Source of the DNA: Glycera tridactyla
Taxonomy: Eukaryota
Assembly: GCA_965644265.1 (NCBI GenBank)
Contig: OZ286477.1
Span: forward strand, 29,202,001-29,266,000
DNA: 64,000 bases
Reading direction: 5' to 3'
The notes under the pieces were generated by a model. That model worked only from the letters and a program-made list of their open reading frames with translations. It ran no database searches and had not been told where the DNA came from. Positions 37,401 to 48,040 of this stretch are shown piece after piece. Position numbers and translations under genes: made by a program. Each line of letters begins with the position of its first letter. The stretch's first letter is position 1.

Positions 37401-37781
37401 GGTTTGGTTGAAAACATGTCAAGCCCCACTGAATCAAGCGGTCTCTTATGGGAACATGAAAAAACTTCAGGCATGATATACTCAGTCCCGTCTCTCCTGC
37501 CTTTTTGATTCTCTACCAATTAGCCTCACTAGTCATTCGTCTCAGTGATATATAATATCTGAGTGCTAGTTCTTATTCCACCCCCGCACTAACAATGCAT
37601 GATAGGCTATGGAAGAAACTCCATGAAGCAGATGAGACTAGACCAAACATTCATGCAAATTTGGGACCCGTAAACCTACCTTCGTGCACCAGTTTTCATT
37701 GCACCAAATCCAATCTGATTAATTGCGCATTGTCTCTTTTCAGTGCAACTTATCAGTTTGAATTGGATCATATTCACATTC

Positions 37782-37817
37782 TTCAATTCAATTCAATTCA
37801 ATTCAATAAACTTTATT
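37782..37817 (-). repeat. LINE 3' end: AATAAA plus (TTGAA)5 tail
   Basis: Minus strand reads AATAAAGTTTA TTGAA x5; short tandem-repeat tails are typical of CR1/L2 elements. Confidence 0.9.
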
Positions 37818-38298
37818 TTTTCTCGTAACTGAATATATATACAGATGTGCAATTATCCTGGTGGATTTCTACAGCACACATGAGAATTAAATTTAACAAC
37901 GCAACACAAACACAAATATACATATATTTTACAGTAGACATTCATTCCAGATTCATCCTTCACCCAGTTATATCCACGACAATAAACATTCACACTCATA
38001 TATACATCCTCGCATATCCTCAAAAATAGACATGCACACACACATTTACTCATGCATTTTTTCACTTCCTTACTATTTACAAACTGAATTCCTGTAGGGT
38101 GTACCAGATAGTAACTTTACAATGTGGGTCTGGGATTTGATGGGATGCTTATTAGATAAGCATTTATATAGTGGACCAGGGGAACATGGTCCATTTAAGG
38201 CTTCTTATATAAGGTACATAAAGGAAAGAGGGGGGGGGGCGGCCTGCTGTCATACCCAAATAACCAAACATTCTTTACAACTATTGCCACAATTTTGG

Positions 38299-41200
38299 CT
38301 AAGTTATACTACCCAGTTCCCATGGGTTCAAATGTTGTGTAATAGAGCATTTGAACACTTGCATTGAACAGGATTCCTTTAGACTGGTGGACAAGCTATT
38401 CCAAAGTTTGGCTCCCCTAAGGGCAAAATTACCCTTTGACTTTACCAAACGAGTTCGCGGTATATGTAAATGGTTTCGTGATGTTGCTCTAGTCGATCTG
38501 CTATTATGGGATGTTAGGGGCACGAATAGTTGTCTGATCCCATGTGGTGTTGCTTTATTTATAATAGTTTTATACATGAAAACTGATCCATGCTTCTGTC
38601 TACGAATTTGGAGGGGATCTAATTTTAGATCCCTCTGTAGACTTTCGCTTGGGGTACTTCGATCTTTCAATAAGATAGTTCTGACCGCACAGTTTTGAAC
38701 TCTTTGCAGCATAGCACTATCACGTTGGCTCAGATTATCATAAACGATATCACAATAGTCAAATATGGGAGTAACAAGGCTTTTGTACAGCATTAGCGCG
38801 GTATCTTGATTTAAAATCGGCCTAAGTCTACCAAGTATCTTCACCTTCTCAATGGTCTTTTTCTTTACATGATCTGCGTGAGCATTGAACTTCAGCTTGT
38901 CATCAAGATATACTCCTAGATATTTGAAAGTATTTACTCTTGATATTTGTTTACCCCCATATTTGACTACTACATTTTGGAATCTTCTCAACATGGCATG
39001 TGTTCCAAAGAGCATCAGTTTCGTTTTTTCAATATTCAACATGAGCTTGTTCTCCTTTAACCAATCTGCTACTAGGGAAAGATTACGATTTAAGATATCG
39101 TGCATTGAATTTGGATCTGCGCTGGTGCATGAAATCGCGGTGTCATCCGCATACAGGTGTACACTTACATTATTGAAGATCGTTGGCATGTCGTTGATAT
39201 ACAACGTAAAGAGTAAGGGTCCTAAAATGGAGCCTTGTGGGACTCCGCATTTAACGTTAAGTGGATCAGAGACTGTACTGTTAGCTTTTGTACTGCATTT
39301 ACGGTCTGTCAGATATGATGTGATCCATTGACTTGCTTTAGGCCCAATGCCTAGTCCCTTTAATTTTGACACTAGAATATTATGGTTTACAGTGTCGAAG
39401 GCCTTGCGTAGGTCCAAGAAGAGCACCCCACTGGGATTCCCCCCCTCCAGTCCCTGATAGATTTTATCCAGGAACTGGAGGAGGCAAGTCACAGTCGAGT
39501 GACCCTCCCTGAACCCCGCTTGTTCACTACATAGAATATCAAATCTGCTTAGGAAATCACTAAGCTGGTTGTGCGTGATACGTTCGAGTATTTCACTCAT
39601 AGGACTTAGTACGGTGATCGGCCTGTAGTTAGAGGGGTTAGATCTAGCACCCTCCTTATATAGTGGGGTGATAAGACCAGTTTTCCATTTGTGAGGGAAA
39701 ATCGAGTTTGACAAGCTCAAGTCAAAAATGTGTTTCAGTAAAGGTCCTATCGATGGTAGGATCCACTTCAGGATAGTTGGTGGTAGACCGTCATCACCAC
39801 AACTTCTAGTGCTAGACATCTTGTTAACCACATTGCAGATGTTTTCAATGGTTACAGAAGAGAATTCAAAATTGAGTCGACTGAACTGTGTCTCTACTGG
39901 CTCATATGGCTCGTTTTGTGGGAAATTATTATTTATGTTTTCTCCAATTGTACTAAAGTACTCATTTAGTTGGGTGGCAATCATAGTTGCATCAGTCTCG
40001 CTACCAATCTTATTTATAATGTTTGCAGCCTTACTATTCGGCCAGAATTCCCGTATGAGTTTCCATAGCTTTTTGGGATTTCCCTCCGATTCAGATAGCC
40101 GCGTACTGATATAAGATCGTTGTAAAGATCTTTTTAGACGATTAGTGGTTAGTTGGGCTTGTTTTTTCCTATCTGCATGTTCTTCGCTGGGTGACAATCT
40201 GTATTTCTTACTCCAGTATTTGCGAGAGTCTATATGGCTAAGGTAATCTCCATTTATCCATCCCGGACTCACATCTCTAAAACGTGTTTTTTTCCAGGGA
40301 ACGTGTTTGTCACATATTTGTAAGATTTTTGTATAGAAAATATCTACTACTACATTTACATCTGTAGTTTCCAATAGATCTTCCCAATTAGAATTTGTTA
40401 TATCATAGTTTAGTTTGGGTACATCAACGTGCCTGTAATTTCTTATCTTTACGGAATGGCCTTTTTTAGTGATTTTCTTCTTTTTACGACTGACAAAAAT
40501 GAGTGAGTGGTCACTGAGGCCAAGATCATAAACATCTGCAATTTTACATAATTCAGGGCGATTCGTCAAAATGTGGTCGATTAAGGTACTCGATGTCGTC
40601 GTTACTCTAGTTGGATTTTTTATCATTTGATCAAGGTGATAGATTTTAAGAAGGTTTTTATACTTTTTCACAATATTATTGTTCTGTAATAAATCTATAT
40701 TGATATCACCTAGTATCCAGATATCAGCAACACGGTCAGTATAAACATCAGCTAAGCGAAGTTCGAGCAATTCAAGGGCGTTTGTAATATCACCAGAGGG
40801 GGGTCGGTAAATAGTGCAGACATATGTTGGCCTTGTATGCGGTAGAGTAAGTCTCACCCATACCATTTCAATGTCCTTCGATACTAGATCCCAGTCTTGT
40901 ATGACTGAGAAACTGTAGTGATCCCTGAGGTACATGCAGATCCCACCACCAGTTTTCTTGAGATTTGGGCCACTTCTATCTAAGCGATGTAGAGTATAAT
41001 TTGGTATTTGTAGTATATCACTTGGAGTTATTGGTGACAAAAAGGTTTCAACCAGGCCAAAACAATCTATCCGTGTTTGTTGTAAAAAGATCTTCAGTTC
41101 ATCTATATTCTTGAGTAAGCTCCTGATATTCAGACAAGCAAAGATAATGCCATTCCATTTAGAAATATCAATTGCGCATTGTGTAGGTGAATTGGGTATG

Positions 41201-41427
41201 ACAGCAGTCTCAGAGGGGAAATAATCAAGTATAGACAAAGTGATGAGTTTTTGTGAACAGACAGTTGTCAGAAAGATGGGGAGTTCATTTTTAAGATTTT
41301 CTTGTAGTGGCTGGCATTTGCAAGATATCAATTTGAATCGCAGATTGTGAGAACAGCAAAATTGGTCATAACTTAGAAGTTCAGTTCCATTACACAATTG
41401 TCATATGGCAAACTGAAATACCATCAT
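38299..41427 (-). CDS. LINE ORF2: apurinic endonuclease + reverse transcriptase (1032-aa open frame 41397-38299; probable ATG at 41427/41424 separated by one TGA at 41403-41401)
   Basis: APE motifs LNIRSL, VETFL, GGGICMY, IYRPP, GDINID, LIDHILTN, LSDH; RT motifs NYRPITVL, QAGFR, FLDLRKAFDTVNH, GVPQGSILGPLLF, YADDT, FKYLGV. Confidence 0.97.
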
Positions 41428-42041
41428 CCTAATACAGCTGTGTCAATTTCTTTTACACAAGTGATTGATTTCTTGCAAACTGAAAAATACCATTAGTGTC
41501 AACAGTTCCAATTATAACAAACTGGTTGAGTATGTACAGCACATTCTGTGGGTGGCTAAAGTGTCACATGACTTATTCAAAGCAACGAGGTATATGTAGC
41601 GGCTTACACTAGGCATATCCAGTTAGCTATGTAATACAATTTAATTCTTGACTACATGTTACGTCACTTGGGTACTATTCCATAAAATGATAAAGGAGAG
41701 TTGGAAAATCAAGCGCCAAAGTATTGCCCCGAGTCGCAAGCGGCTTAAAAGCTACTAGAACAAGGCGCCATCAGAGTCACTTGGGTTCCCAACTATCACT
41801 GGTACTGATTGTATGAACATATGGGTAGTCCTATACGCGTAGTCCATGTTGTTATATATAGTTTCCAAAGATCACGACAGACAATCAAGTGGGGCTGATC
41901 ATGACTCAAGGATGGTTTAGCCTAAGCAGCAAGATAGCGACTAGTACCCTCCCAAACCAGAATTCATGGTCAGTCCCAGGCGATTTACTTACTGATTATG
42001 CCAGAAAAGGGCCACTAAGGGGGACAGATCACTTAGATTTC

Positions 42042-43080
42042 TTAGTTTTTGATAAGGTTGGCCCATATGTCAAGAATCTGGCCTATGATACTAAGGCAAA
42101 AGGCCACATTTCCAGTGTCGTTTAAGTGAGTACGGTCTAGCAGCATCATTCCAGGCAAGATCGCTCCGTAGTTGTTAGGTTTCTTCTTTTGCATACTATC
42201 TAGGGAATACATGTTTTCAAAAAGCCTGAAGGTGTGGAGAAGTTTCACTGTATGAAACTTGTCGTTTCTAAGCACTCGAGTCACATACTTATCTAGTTGC
42301 ATTGCAAACGATTTCGTATGAGGTGACCAGTAAGGCCTCCAGATGATAGGTACATAACATATCTTTACGCTGGGGAAGTACATCCTTGTGTCATTTAACA
42401 GACCATTGATCTCATACATTAAAGTTTGCAGTCTAGTATTCTTTTCTCGCATAATGAGGATAGTAGCTGTCCGAGTATGGCCATGTCAACGGTATGTTCG
42501 TTGCACCCATGTTTCAAAGTTTCCAACATCATTCGATCCCAAGACCCATACTACTATAGCCGGTCGTATATCACTATTTATGAGACGAAACCACGTATCA
42601 CCATACAATACCATTTTGCGTTTGTCCTTGAAGTTACCACACATTTCTTTGCATATTGTGCCAAACTTAGCACCGCTTATCCCCTTGGTATGCCAGTTAC
42701 GTGTAGCCGTATAGAGTGTAGTAGTGGGATTTAACCTGCTGAGGGTATCACCTAATCTAGACACATGGCTGGAACCCAGAAATAGAACCTGGGGAAATCC
42801 ATGTCGGGCAAACGATCTTTGCCGTGTGAGTATCGGATGGTGTTTCCGGTCGATTTCATTTCTTCGTTCCGCGTCTCTTTCCGCTTGCAGTCGACTCACC
42901 TGTAACACAGGCGTATGAGTCCTAAGATATTGTTTTCTTAAGGATTGCCAAGTTTCAATAAATACATATGACTTAGTAGTTCACGTGTTATAATATTATT
43001 TAGTATGAAAACATTTTGCTTACCGAGTTGATTGATTGTCGGCTATGATAAATTTCACTAGAGCGTAGTATATATGCCAT
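42042..43080 (-). CDS. SGNH/GDSL hydrolase (esterase) ORF within the LINE; predicted exons 43080-43024 and 42899-42042; one premature TGA at 42488-42486
   Basis: One frame 42899-42042 carries all four SGNH blocks: FLGSSHV (42776-42765), KGISGAK, VLGSNDV (42539-42528), LDRTHLN (42137-42126). Track ORFs 42486-42908 and 42042-42452 are in the same frame. SGNH identity is strong; the exon 1 model is inferred. Confidence 0.85.
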
Positions 43081-45174
43081 CTTTCGAAGCAGTGACTTCG
43101 GCCGAGCCCAGTGTACTAAGCGTTTTGAAATAATTTTTGAGTGGCAGCGTGCCGGGGGGGGGCTTGTTTGCGACCCGCGGCGTCATTCAGTTTGCGAGCT
43201 TTGCAGTTTGCCATGCATTCGTATGCAAGGTCGGACTTGCAGCATCAATTTTATTTTCCAACGATCGCAGTTTTTCTTCTGAGGCTTTGGCTGACTTGGG
43301 TGTAGTTGTGTCCATGTCAACCCCTTCACTCTCATTTTTATTTATCGGTTTGGGAAGGTTTTGCTTTACCGGGGAGGGTTTGGTAGGTAATGGGGCAGCC
43401 AGCCGTGTTGGCCATTCCGTTGACAAAGATTCTTTGACCTGTACTTGCGTATTGTCAATGACTGATTTGTTGTATGTTCTACTATGCCCTTTGGTCGGTG
43501 TTTTGGGGATACTATCATTTAGCTTACGTATTTCATTATACTTGCTAATTGTCAGGCGTCAACTGTCAGGTGAGGTTGTGGCATGAACAGATCCATCTTG
43601 TGTCCAAGTGTTGTGCAGTAGGTTTTTTCGTTTTGCTGACCGTGCCTGGAAGAAGATACTGCTATTATATTCCGTGAGATGTTCACGTAGGAACCATTCA
43701 GTCCCACGTAGTAGGCCTTTAGCTTTGACAATCTCACGTCTAATCCCGGGGTTAGTGAACCTGACCAGGACAGGTTTGGGTTTACCATCTTTCTTGTCGG
43801 GGCCAAAACGTGAGCATTGCAGTATATCTCCTGGTTTGATAACAAGTTGAGCCTTTCCTTGATAAAGTTCGAGATTATTTGGGGTAAATGGACACCTTTA
43901 CTGTGAGCGATGCCTTCAATTATCAACACACTGAGTCTGTCATTACGTTCTAGTTGCTCAATTTTCGTATCAAAAATAAACATGTGCTGACCATGGATCC
44001 CGACCATTTCTTTGGTCTGGGCTAGCTCAGCTTTGCACTCACATTCCACCTTGAGCTTTGACAGTTTGTCATTTATTCGCTTCTCTACAATATTATCAAT
44101 ATTATTTTCAATTTCGGAGATTCTGAGTTCATGTCTATTGGCGATGGTAGCAGATTCATCCATATGATTTTCTATGGTTTGAATTTTGGCTCTAAATGGT
44201 TCAACACTCTTTTTCACCTCAACAGCAGTAGCCACTTGAACCATGTCTGGTACTTCATGTTGGAAAGCGCGAGCAATTTCATCTTTGATAATGTTCTTCA
44301 TCGATGACTGTACCTGTTGGGCATTCAGTTCAAGTTGCAGTTTCATTTCATTACGTAGCATGGACATTGTTTGTGATATAGACGTTGTCATTTCTTTTAG
44401 GCTATTTTGGGTAGATATACTGAGTCGGTTTGCAATAGTATGCATTTTCGCTACTGGATCATATTGGGTTAGCGGAGTTGGTTTCGTATTCAACTGGGCG
44501 GGTTTACTGTTATTGAAAATGCGCCACTGGTCGGAATCAAGTTTGTCGTCACAGTTGAAGGGTAGAGAGCTGTTCAGTGGGGCGTGGGGTGTATCGGCTA
44601 TACCCGCCGGGTCTAGGCTCACATTCACTAAGTTCATATATTGATGCGCCTTTGCCATTGTGCTCGTTGTATAGCTAGGAGAAAGTGCTGAAAGGGCCCC
44701 CATGTCTATCACACCTTCACTGGCAGCTCGTGCTGGCGAGGTTTTCGGTTCGAAACCCGGTTTCATGCCTTCGTCTAAACTAAGCCCCGATAGTCTTAAT
44801 GGCGAGTACATTTGTATACTGGATTCATCAATTTCAACACTGTCACTTAAGAAAGAAATATTGCTATTGAGAGGGTTGTTGAGTGTAGTAAGTGACTTAT
44901 CTTCGGTTATTGGCATGTCCAGAAGGTCCGGTGTATTTTGTTTTCCTCGCTTTTGGTCCTCTATGTTGATCGGGGTATTTCGTTCCACCCTTTTCTCATT
45001 TTGATCGTTTGGTGTAGTAGCCATCTTGGATTCGATATCCTCGCCCGGTTTAGCTAGGAATAAATCCGCTGGTGTGACTAGGGTATTTTGTCCTCCCTTC
45101 AGAGCTCTTCTCGTGGGGGTGCTTGGTGGTTTCCCATACTCGTTCGTGCCTGTATCCAACTTTTGCGTAGCCAT
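43058..45174 (-). CDS. LINE ORF1, L1-type (disordered N-term, coiled coil, RRM, CTD), disrupted by a 1-nt deletion (~43845) and TGAs at 43561-43559 and 43189-43187
   Basis: Heptad-rich region then EQLERNDRLSVLIIEGI (RRM start). After a -1 shift the frame reads IKPGDILQCSRFGPDKKDGKPKPVLVRF...FLREHLT...NTWTQDG, the canonical RRM-CTD motifs. That frame continues through ORF 43187-43426 to TAG 43060-43058. Confidence 0.9.
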
Positions 45175-45199
45175 AATCGTTCATAAATCAATGGTTAAT

Positions 45200-45243
45200 C
45201 TCCCCGCGATCCGCTCGACGTCTATTCACTCATCACGTGACGG
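45200..45243 (-). promoter_or_regulatory. Candidate internal promoter at the LINE 5' end
   Basis: CpG cluster with E-box GTCACGTGA (CACGTG 45234-45239) and GACGTC (45217-45222), 40-70 nt upstream of the ORF1 ATG. Function is inferred only. Confidence 0.3.
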
Positions 45244-45589
45244 TTGATCCGTGAAAGGAAAATTGGAGTTGATTGATTGTCCCTCCACTATTGAGACAGC
45301 TACCAAATTGTATTTGGGGAAAGAACAAGAGGTGAAACACAGTTGCCTGATGGATGGGCGAATCTTGATTTTTTTTGAGAGCCGGGACTACTTTTGCCAA
45401 ATCATAGCTCTCTCTCTCTACACAAGTAGCACAGCGTATTGTGGCTGAATAACCACTTTGCCAGGTTTCATGGATCACTCCGCCCTTTCATGAATGAAGT
45501 TGTAGATAGCGTGTGTAAAACCAGCCAATCAGAGATCAGCTCATGGGCCATAACGCTATGAGACAAATCCACGGGTGGCTTGCTCATGA

Positions 45590-45598
45590 CTCTCGCTC

Positions 45599-45637
<39 letters not shown>
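45590..45637. repeat. (CT)n microsatellite
   Basis: Directly visible. Confidence 0.95.
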
Positions 45638-45640
<3 letters not shown>

Positions 45641-48040
45641 ATCTCTCGGCGCACGTGGGTGCTCTTGTTCTCTCTCTAATGCTGGAATATGACTTTTGTT
45701 CTTGAGCCAGGTATTTGAAACCTGTGTAATGTGTCAGGATGTGCGGATGGTAAAATGATTTCACAATAGGAGTAACTATACAGATTCAGCTATCACAGAA
45801 CTCGAGTGTCATTGTGTGAGAAAATTCGATACGAAATGCACTGAGAAAATATTCACCTATCCGTGCTTGGAGATATTTCAATCAGCAAAAGGAAGAATAA
45901 TTACGTGCTTGACCAAGGGGCAGATTTGTTGAGGGAAGGAGTGGCTGGTCCGATGGGATTGAATCATGGTGACTTGAGACTTGGCTGGAAAAGGCATCAT
46001 TCTTATCCGTGGTCGCGTACACACTATCCATCACTGTGTTAGAGACAATGGACAATTGAGTAGGACACCAGACCACCATTGATGTCATTTGCAGCAAAAA
46101 AGGAATGATTAATTCAGCCGATCCATCAATCTATTCACGCCTGCTCTCTTGGAACACCCTTCCTCCAAAGTCCTTGATCAACTCAAGGACATGGGATTGA
46201 TCTTTTTGAACTATAGAATGGAAAATTCATATGTATTTCACCTACTGTCACTCGGCTATGATCAATTTGAACAATCGGAATACCATTTGTACCCAAAGTA
46301 CTCGATCAATATCATATCATCGGATCGGTGACTATGGGGACAGAAATTTCCTAGAGAAAAGATTATGAAAGCACACCATGCATGGCGAATTTGGCTAAAT
46401 ATTTGTGAAAGCTCAATTTCTTCTCGGAGACTCCGATATAATGAGTTCTAGTGAATGAAAGACAAGTTGCACCAACAATACTCATGCTGTCGGGATAAAC
46501 GCATCAGATCGAGCATATATGAAATCCCCCCAAAAAATATCTTCTCTAAAATATAGAGTACACCAGCCTATACATGCAACAGTGGGGGTTCAACAGTGTG
46601 GACGTGATCAGGTGTTACATTTCGTGCAGCCTAAAAAATCACTCGAGTCATCAAATCATTCAATCATCAGAATCTCATCTCATTGATTGATACTCGAATA
46701 ATGCCTCCTTCTACCATCAAAGGGTCTTACTGGTCACCAATAATATGAGAGAGATAGTCCTTGAATTGATGAATGCAATTTCACAGTCCGACATCTACAC
46801 TGAAGCTTAATTTAGATATTGCCCATATATTCGCACCTTTATACCACTCTTCTATCTTACCTCTTGCGAATATGTTCAGAACTTTCCACATTGCTGGCCA
46901 CACCACATAGTCCTCAACTTGTTGTGCATCTACTTGATTACTTAATGCAGACCCCTGAGATCCTATTAAGGACAGATGAGACCCTCGGCGACATGCTTCT
47001 CGAATATCTGGCAAATAGCTCATCACATTTCTAACGGAACTCAGATTCGAGCACGATAGCAATGCATTGTGAGCCAAAACTAAAAAGAAATAGAATTCAA
47101 GGGTGAAGCCAAGCCGTGATTTCATCTATCCAAATATTGACTTCTTCGAAAGAAATTCTTATGTCAATAAAACGTTCGGCTCTATACTGTATCTCATCTA
47201 TGAGATCTTTTTCGTCATGATCTGAGAATATCCGACTGATATCTGATGATATATTTACCTAGAATGAAACCTATGATTCAAGCCTGACAGCATGGTATGA
47301 TAAGCAAGTCAAGAAGCGAACATTCAGGAACAGAAAGTGCATGATTGTAGCAGAGTGAGCATAGTGTTATCTTCATCCAGCTGACACTACTAGAATCATT
47401 AGTCCATACAGGCAGCAACAAAAATCCCATTCCACTGTAGATAATGACGGAGTGTTGGCCGGGGTCATCCTAGGGTGTTTATGTGGGCTTTGATAGATGG
47501 TTAGATGAGGGCGATGGGAGGGCTATTTGTGATGAATGATGGGCCCACAGCTAGAACTCTATCTTTCCTCTGGACATCCCATCCACAATGGATTGATCAA
47601 TAACCACATTATACATCCCTGAATGTCGAATCACTAATTGGATTCGGTTCCCATTGGATATTCGGATGCTGATTATATAGTACCCATACTAAATACGTTG
47701 TTTGATGTGTATCTGAAATGCTGGGTATCCTGACACCTTTCTGGCTACCTACTCATCGAAGGAATAATTTCATCAATAGGAGCAACAACGTATTGAACTG
47801 TTAGACCAAATCTTACATCAAGCGAATGAAACTATTGGCTCAATGAATTCCACTGGTGAAGTTTTATTCAATCTCGACTCTGTCACTACGAGCTTTGAGC
47901 CGTTAGTAATCAGTTAGAACCGTGAACATAATATTGATAGTAATACAGATCGAAGAATTGAGAAGAGTGAGATGGAATGTCGAATACCTGTATCCAAGAA
48001 TGCATGCGTGGTGTTCAGTAAAAGAGTTGAATTCATAATA

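Follow-up and report, generated by a model that had tools for sequence, protein, structure and literature searches.

In this study, we analysed a 64,000-nucleotide window of the Glycera tridactyla genome (contig OZ286477.1), which contains a LINE encoding an L1-type ORF1, an SGNH esterase in an ORF of its own and an APE-RT ORF2, three ORFs in all. The esterase ORF is divided by a 124-nt segment that is almost certainly a real spliceosomal intron. Our preferred reading, to which we give a probability of roughly 0.6, is that the intron-split esterase is made from spliced RNA only, that most new copies arise from unspliced RNA, and that the intron limits the esterase. The features of the window copy were as follows.

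37781..45240, minus strand: decayed full-length non-LTR retrotransposon (LINE) of about 7.5 kb, with ends common to other copies
43058..45174, minus strand: ORF1 of L1 type (coiled coil, RRM, CTD), disrupted here by stops and frame breaks
43024..43080, minus strand: esterase exon 1, 57 nt, 19 codons, with a strong-context ATG, a phase-0 frame and purifying selection
42900..43023, minus strand: U2-type spliceosomal intron, phase 0, 124 nt, with conserved GT/YAG ends and precise losses in 8 copies
42923..42926, minus strand: candidate branch-point motif, CTNA at -27..-24, a column kept within the window's subfamily
42042..42899, minus strand: esterase exon 2, 285 codons, with SGNH blocks I, II, III and V, identified by alignment, Pfam and predicted fold
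41890..41975, minus strand: conserved non-coding block 1 of the esterase-ORF2 spacer, with a core motif in common with block 2
41697..41795, minus strand: conserved non-coding block 2, a predicted long hairpin with some covarying pairs
38299..41238, minus strand: ORF2, APE endonuclease and reverse transcriptase, identified by Pfam, with a likely near-cognate start (TTG at 41238 here)

The 5' motif of the LINE lies near 45240, and its 3' end carries AATAAA and an (ATTGA)n tail. The last codons of ORF1 overlap the esterase ATG in the window, with the ORF1 stop at 43060-43058, and the esterase (43080-42042) has one internal TGA at 42488-42486. In Pfam, ORF2 matched RVT_1 (E 5e-39), and the APE domain preceding the RT matched Exo_endo_phos_2 (E 2.4e-5, just below the curated cut-off). 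Besides the APE and RT domains, the traits of an APE-type LINE included the AATAAA plus (ATTGA)n-type tails and the occurrence of 5'-truncated copies (L095, L182 and L183). The element resembles the CR1 group (Crack/Daphne/L2-2) and may belong near it, an assignment by resemblance rather than from a reference tree. The three ORFs were intact together in 29 copies, and the intron was present in all 29. A Rfam scan of 37500-46500 gave a single match, at chance level.

The original prediction had placed the intron between GTAAGC and TTACAG, with a 57-nt exon joined in frame to the esterase by its removal. We recovered exactly these values: the segment at 43023..42900 on the minus strand has 124 nt and 37 G+C (0.30), and exon 1 reads in frame into exon 2 from 42899 onward. 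The stops reported inside the segment are also there, five of them in the exon-1 frame. We searched the 2.04 Gb of the same genome with the window DNA and obtained 19 other matches at 68-81% identity. Both exon 1 and the acceptor were placeable in 15 close copies. Of these, 13 retain the donor GT and 14 the acceptor CAG, and their interiors measure 74 to 150 nt. Interior identity was 0.55 against 0.49 for shuffled sequence in 55 pairs from 11 close copies, and in the same pairs exon codon positions 1 and 2 were 0.76 and 0.81 identical. The comparison across copies that had been put forward as a check therefore came out in favour of the intron, with GT/AG and the exon-1 frame kept and the interior drifting. 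Beyond the splice signals, the close-copy comparison found no conserved element in the interior.

To widen the sample, we used the exon-2 protein of an intact copy as a search query, and 136 of 3,576 candidates were scored. We took 100 of the scored matches and later 38 more loci, and 157 loci were analysed in all. The exon-2 anchor was found in 150 loci and the exon-1 peptide as well in 126, both placed by protein similarity and not by GT or AG. The results showed that 8 of the 126 two-exon copies were intronless and 118 had intervening sequence. At the homology-fixed phase-0 sites, GT was found at the donor in 113/118 and YAG at the acceptor in 113/118. The introns were 65-482 nt long (median 105) with a GC content of 0.34; their lengths fell in all three classes modulo 3, and 114 of the 118 contained an in-frame stop. 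Near-identical duplicates, tandem or segmental, are present among the loci, so that clusters give a fairer count: the 126 copies formed 63 clusters at 85% identity, of which 58 had a GT..AG member. In the unbiased set, 99 copies bear the intron; of these, 94 had GT, 94 had YAG and 90 had both. The background frequency per position within intron interiors was 0.033 for GT and 0.019 for YAG, and the splice-site signal is far beyond chance.

The segment had the GT-AG ends, GTRAG donor, pyrimidine tract and branch motif of a U2-type intron. Among 58 cluster representatives, the commonest donors were GTAAGA (18), GTAAGT (15) and GTGAGT (8). CTRAY occurred at -14..-45 in 22/58 representatives, against a mean of 8.6 and a maximum of 17 in 500 shuffles, and the conserved branch-like column was CTNA at about -27..-24 from the acceptor. 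The TACTAA motifs previously proposed as branch-like are ruled out as branch points: their distances from the acceptor are about 75 and 100 nt, and the other copies do not retain them. The polypyrimidine tract, described earlier as weak, is ordinary for the family, with a pyrimidine fraction of 0.70 in the window and a family mean of 0.71. A further caveat concerned a donor-like GTGAGT just after the acceptor. It is present in the window, but GTRAG stood immediately 3' of the acceptor in only 6/58 representatives, so that it represents Val-Ser codons of the window's subfamily and is no general second donor; recursive splicing as a family feature is ruled out on this count. In L240-L242 and L252, the intron was enlarged to 224-299 nt by a repeated insert, and the same subfamily yielded a four-copy intronless group. 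L022 and L025 had tandem duplications within the esterase ORF, and the L025 duplicate takes in the acceptor.

Further evidence for splicing came from the eight intronless copies, which represent five separate events and lack exactly the GT..AG segment. L095 is without exactly the 116-nt GT..AG segment of L093 at 98% identity, and L179 differs from L117 and its kin only in the absence of the 82-nt intron, at 98% identity along the whole element. L181-L184 are without the intron that spans 224-299 nt in L240-L242 and L252 (97-99% identity), L185 lacks the intron of L248 and its kin, and L085 lacks the one carried by L086 and L090. Terminal redundancy at the five exact removals was 0-1 nt, which points to splicing followed by reverse transcription. 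These copies are retrotransposed spliced RNAs, so that splicing is shown at the DNA level. The claims that the intron supplies the esterase start codon and that most retrotransposition uses unspliced RNA are supported both by conservation and by these precisely intronless copies. L179, L181, L184 and L185 reach the 5' end of the element and keep ORF1 sequence, which argues that the spliced RNA is full-length. No further segment was missing where the relative was 97-98% identical (L095, L179 and the L181 group), indicating that the element has only one intron. A second intron linking exon 1 or the esterase to ORF2 is unsupported, since the full-length intronless copies lack a single segment only. 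The search for precisely intronless copies suggested earlier was thus successful in the family, but none was found in the window's own subfamily, where a degenerate junction pattern gave one match, unrelated to the element. For the window copy itself, splicing would therefore follow from homology. Imprecise deletions also occurred in L091 and L027, taking the donor and not the whole intron; the L091 deletion carries a short microhomology and resembles a slip at the DNA or RT level.

To place the losses in the history of the family, we built a protein tree from the exon-2 sequences of 113 copies; the other 13 of the 126 had broken frames and were left out, among them L179, which was counted as the fifth loss event. 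The intronless state required four separate changes in this tree, all forced by starred branches. The losses were all at or near the tips of a tree with a root-to-tip depth of 0.59-1.38 substitutions per site and 9.6 on internal branches, and there was no deep intronless clade. Six of the eight intronless copies came from searches aimed at such copies, and the rate in the unbiased set was 2/101. With a loss of 2% per round and an assumed step size of 0.03 per round, rough arithmetic gives about 7 expected internal losses, and one shallow loss was seen. Because losses are rare and shallow, selection likely keeps the intron, a conclusion that leans on the assumed step size. L181-L184 were mutually 98.9-99.4% alike and grouped together with support of 91/96 and 91/91 (not starred), and the esterase and ORF2 frames of L181 and L182 were still open. 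The group suggests a short-lived intronless sublineage, or may come from repeated splicing of one unsampled master. In either case, one intronless group reached four copies, and the intron is not strictly required. The distances of L085 and L185 to their nearest intron-bearing relatives (0.21 and 0.10 substitutions per site) count against our model, as they allow some life without the intron.

The same data bear on an unlikely alternative, in which the intron is real but passive, either because it is rarely spliced or because spliced RNA is rarely reverse-transcribed, and intronless elements are equally fit. The low rate of loss in the unbiased set and the growth of one intronless group to four copies are what such a passive intron would give. 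It fits poorly with five losses at or near the tips and the absence of any deep intronless clade from the 113-row tree, with the shortfall of internal losses (subject to the assumed per-round figure), and with the strength of the donors listed above.

We then examined what the intron interrupts. The AAG-ATG-G context that had been called strong at 43080 is a family feature, since 99% of the 126 copies have a purine at -3 and 81% have G at +4. In 88 pairs, pN/pS of exon 1 was 0.24 in the esterase frame and 1.68 and 1.36 in the other two, and by this measure exon 1 codes under purifying selection solely in the esterase frame. The downstream protein contains SGNH blocks I (G-x-S), II (G), III (GxND) and V (DxxH), and the block residues S62, N142, D274 and H277 were invariant in 36/36 aligned copies. 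Pfam Lipase_GDSL gave weak matches in 19/36 members, and a PDB sequence search with the esterase gave no match. The structural model had a pLDDT of 86 and matched PAF-AH (E 1.5e-5) and other SGNH hydrolases, with a VIA Z of 13.8, an rmsd of 3.8 and 188 aligned residues; exon 1 formed the low-confidence start of a long N-terminal helix. By blocks and modelled fold, the third ORF is a predicted SGNH hydrolase. The ZfL2-1 esterase was absent among the fold matches listed, which were cellular SGNH proteins.

ORF1 was intact in 49 copies. Sequence-level searches with ORF1, including PDB, gave no match. The family ORF1 model had a pLDDT above 70 over most of 250-550, and its ten top Foldseek matches were L1 ORF1p; against human L1 ORF1p (2yko), the Foldseek E value was 1.6e-7 and the VIA Z 9.7, so that ORF1 is predicted to fold like human L1 ORF1p. 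Where a long upstream frame was present (102 copies), ORF1 mostly stopped at -17 to +32 nt of the esterase ATG and in all three frames, indicating that the esterase is separate and not an ORF1 fusion. This arrangement suggests that the esterase may start by termination-reinitiation after ORF1. Termination-reinitiation is documented at a LINE ORF1-ORF2 junction in PMC3708506. In the subfamily of L168, L173, L176, L186 and L193, ORF1 does not stop until within the intron, at +71/+74 relative to the ATG, and splicing would also alter the last few ORF1 codons; this subfamily fits simple stop-start coupling less well.

Our preferred model combines these observations in a single full-length transcript with two putative fates. 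The unspliced RNA would give ORF1p and ORF2p and serve as the usual retrotransposition template, with the short exon-1 frame running into the intron stops. On the spliced RNA, ribosomes leaving ORF1 would reinitiate at the adjoining ATG and produce the 300-residue esterase. Its targets are probably membranes or lipids, as has been suggested for the esterases of other retrotransposons. In this way the intron would set a limit on the amount or timing of the esterase, and intronless copies would spread briefly before being outcompeted. The retrovirus-like pair of RNAs imagined in the original prediction is retained here in that unspliced RNA would serve most retrotransposition, but the spliced RNA is full-length with ORF1 and not subgenomic. 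Similarly, unspliced RNA had been thought a requirement for retrotransposition; it would be used for most copies, but spliced RNA is retrotransposed as well, at a low rate, and one intronless group has four copies.

The spacer and the start of ORF2 were also examined. In 17 copies, block 2 is predicted to fold as a long hairpin, some of whose pairs covary, and the core motif of blocks 1 and 2 was found in 52/150 spacers and 0/150 ORF2 control stretches. Block 1 is likely a structured RNA, and the spacer blocks, which had no Rfam match, may be an IRES-like or packaging element. No ATG was fixed across 46 intact ORF2 copies; one column some 36 codons upstream of the APE motif held GTG, TTG, CTG, GCG or ATG in many of them, which suggests near-cognate initiation of ORF2.

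It is also possible, though improbable, that the intron is kept for something other than esterase dosage, such as packaging, ORF2 translation in cis, or decay or RNP exclusion of spliced RNA. In most copies the exon junction lies 25-75 nt past the ORF1 stop, which is close to the usual distance limit for nonsense-mediated decay, and translation of an ORF2 that lacks a fixed ATG and follows structured blocks may feel upstream ribosome traffic. Against such a role, full-length spliced RNAs were retrotransposed at least four times, L181 and L182 retain open esterase and ORF2 frames, and the interior shows no conserved element besides its splice signals. That the segment is not an intron at all, with the intronless copies being DNA deletions (imprecise ones do exist in L027 and L091) and the esterase starting elsewhere or fused to ORF1 by frameshifting, is extremely improbable and largely refuted by the precise losses, because the termini of five independent deletions would have had to fall precisely on GT and AG, leaving 0-1 nt of redundancy. 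The free intron length modulo 3, the nearly constant internal stops, the confinement of purifying selection on exon 1 to the esterase frame and the fact that ORF1 stops in any of the three frames with respect to the ATG also speak against it.

LINEs copy through RNA and are expected to shed introns, and keeping them is regarded as peculiar to Penelope-like elements. In the open literature searched, no LINE turned up in which a functional intron is conserved; a prior description, in Repbase or in closed papers, is possible. We compared the element with the known systems closest to it. ZfL2-1, CR1 and RTEX (ORF1 type IV) likewise carry an SGNH esterase with conserved active-site residues (PMC3905857, PMC4120745); there it forms part of ORF1p itself, following a coiled coil, and the proteins have no structured RNA-binding domains. 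Here, in contrast, a separate intron-split esterase ORF follows a complete L1-type ORF1, and 29 copies have three separate intact ORFs rather than an esterase domain within ORF1p. The strings 'intron' and 'splic' have no occurrence in the main text of PMC3905857 and PMC4120745. Penelope-like elements keep introns through retrotransposition, which PMC8557442 calls highly unusual and of unknown significance; this retention is ascribed to their unusual mechanism, and they have a telomerase-related RT, a GIY-YIG endonuclease and pseudo-LTRs. The present element is an APE-RT LINE with occasional precise intron loss, and an APE domain before the RT takes the place of GIY-YIG with a telomerase-related RT.

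Human L1 SpIREs are genomic copies derived from spliced LINE RNA (PMC5860796); in L1, splicing strips promoter or ORF1 sequence and yields dead ends. Here, by contrast, splicing creates an ORF, even deep subfamilies share the conserved splice sites, and one intronless group has expanded. For retroviral env, splicing sets the protein ratio and the unspliced RNA is the template. Conserved splicing likewise sets the protein ratio in plant Ty1/Copia GAG, with unspliced RNA as template, as described in PMC5580714; Ty1/Copia and retroviruses are LTR elements with subgenomic spliced RNA, whereas this is a LINE with a full-length, retrotransposable spliced RNA. Daphne, Crack and L2-2 of the CR1 group share the APE-RT ORF2, the short-repeat tail and a transposase-22-like ORF1, and in the sections available of PMC13343379 and PMC10294476, compared by their descriptions, they have at most two ORFs, against three here. 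None of the type IV esterase ORF1s, Penelope introns, SpIREs and Copia GAG splicing matches this case.

To look beyond this genome, we searched for homologues of the esterase. A single-sequence search found none; of the profile searches, one gave 1 match and another gave 131 distant homologues, and the 10 of these looked up had no protein names. The block I motif was present in 71 homologues, 32 of which extend far enough upstream. In 13/32, a Gln lay exactly 42 residues before the block I Gly, compared with 0-2 at 13 neighbouring offsets. This fits an acceptor CAG read through in phase 0 by an intron-blind gene caller, and may alternatively be a conserved Gln. Another 13/32 (P0002, P0004, P0010, P0017, P0022, P0027, P0028, P0030, P0044, P0046, P0049, P0077 and P0099) had an N-terminal segment uninterrupted at the intron position. 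This suggests that lineages without the intron have lasted long elsewhere, a point against our model. The long homologues P0002 and P0129 had low-complexity C-terminal tails. In metagenome locus L258, on a contig too short to show a LINE, the esterase was 25% identical; an upstream ORF stop was followed 21 nt further on by an ATG, an 81-nt exon and a 511-nt GT..AG segment, with the esterase in frame at the 42-residue offset. The nearest Atlas cluster was unnamed, mostly eukaryotic and commonest in molluscs among 29 members with a phylum. At even odds, these elements would form an old, widespread and undescribed three-ORF LINE lineage in which a selected intron regulates the esterase and spliced and unspliced RNAs are sorted in a retrovirus-like two-RNA strategy; the same reading includes an intron position common to esterase homologues of about 25% identity in other organisms.

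One intron has thus been kept by an APE-RT LINE across about 60 diverged subfamilies despite a loss of about 2% per insertion, and this intronless fraction offers a natural measure of the loss rate against selection. The system lets one ask how a LINE picks the RNA isoform to copy, and an esterase in a separate, switchable gene offers a way into retrotransposon esterase function. ORF-based repeat annotation will miss or truncate such split genes. Esterase-bearing copies also occurred in tandem or clustered arrays with regular spacing (G000 C83, 30.5-37.6 kb; C13, 15.69-15.71 Mb; C29, 54.95-54.97 Mb; C28, 73.62-73.70 Mb).
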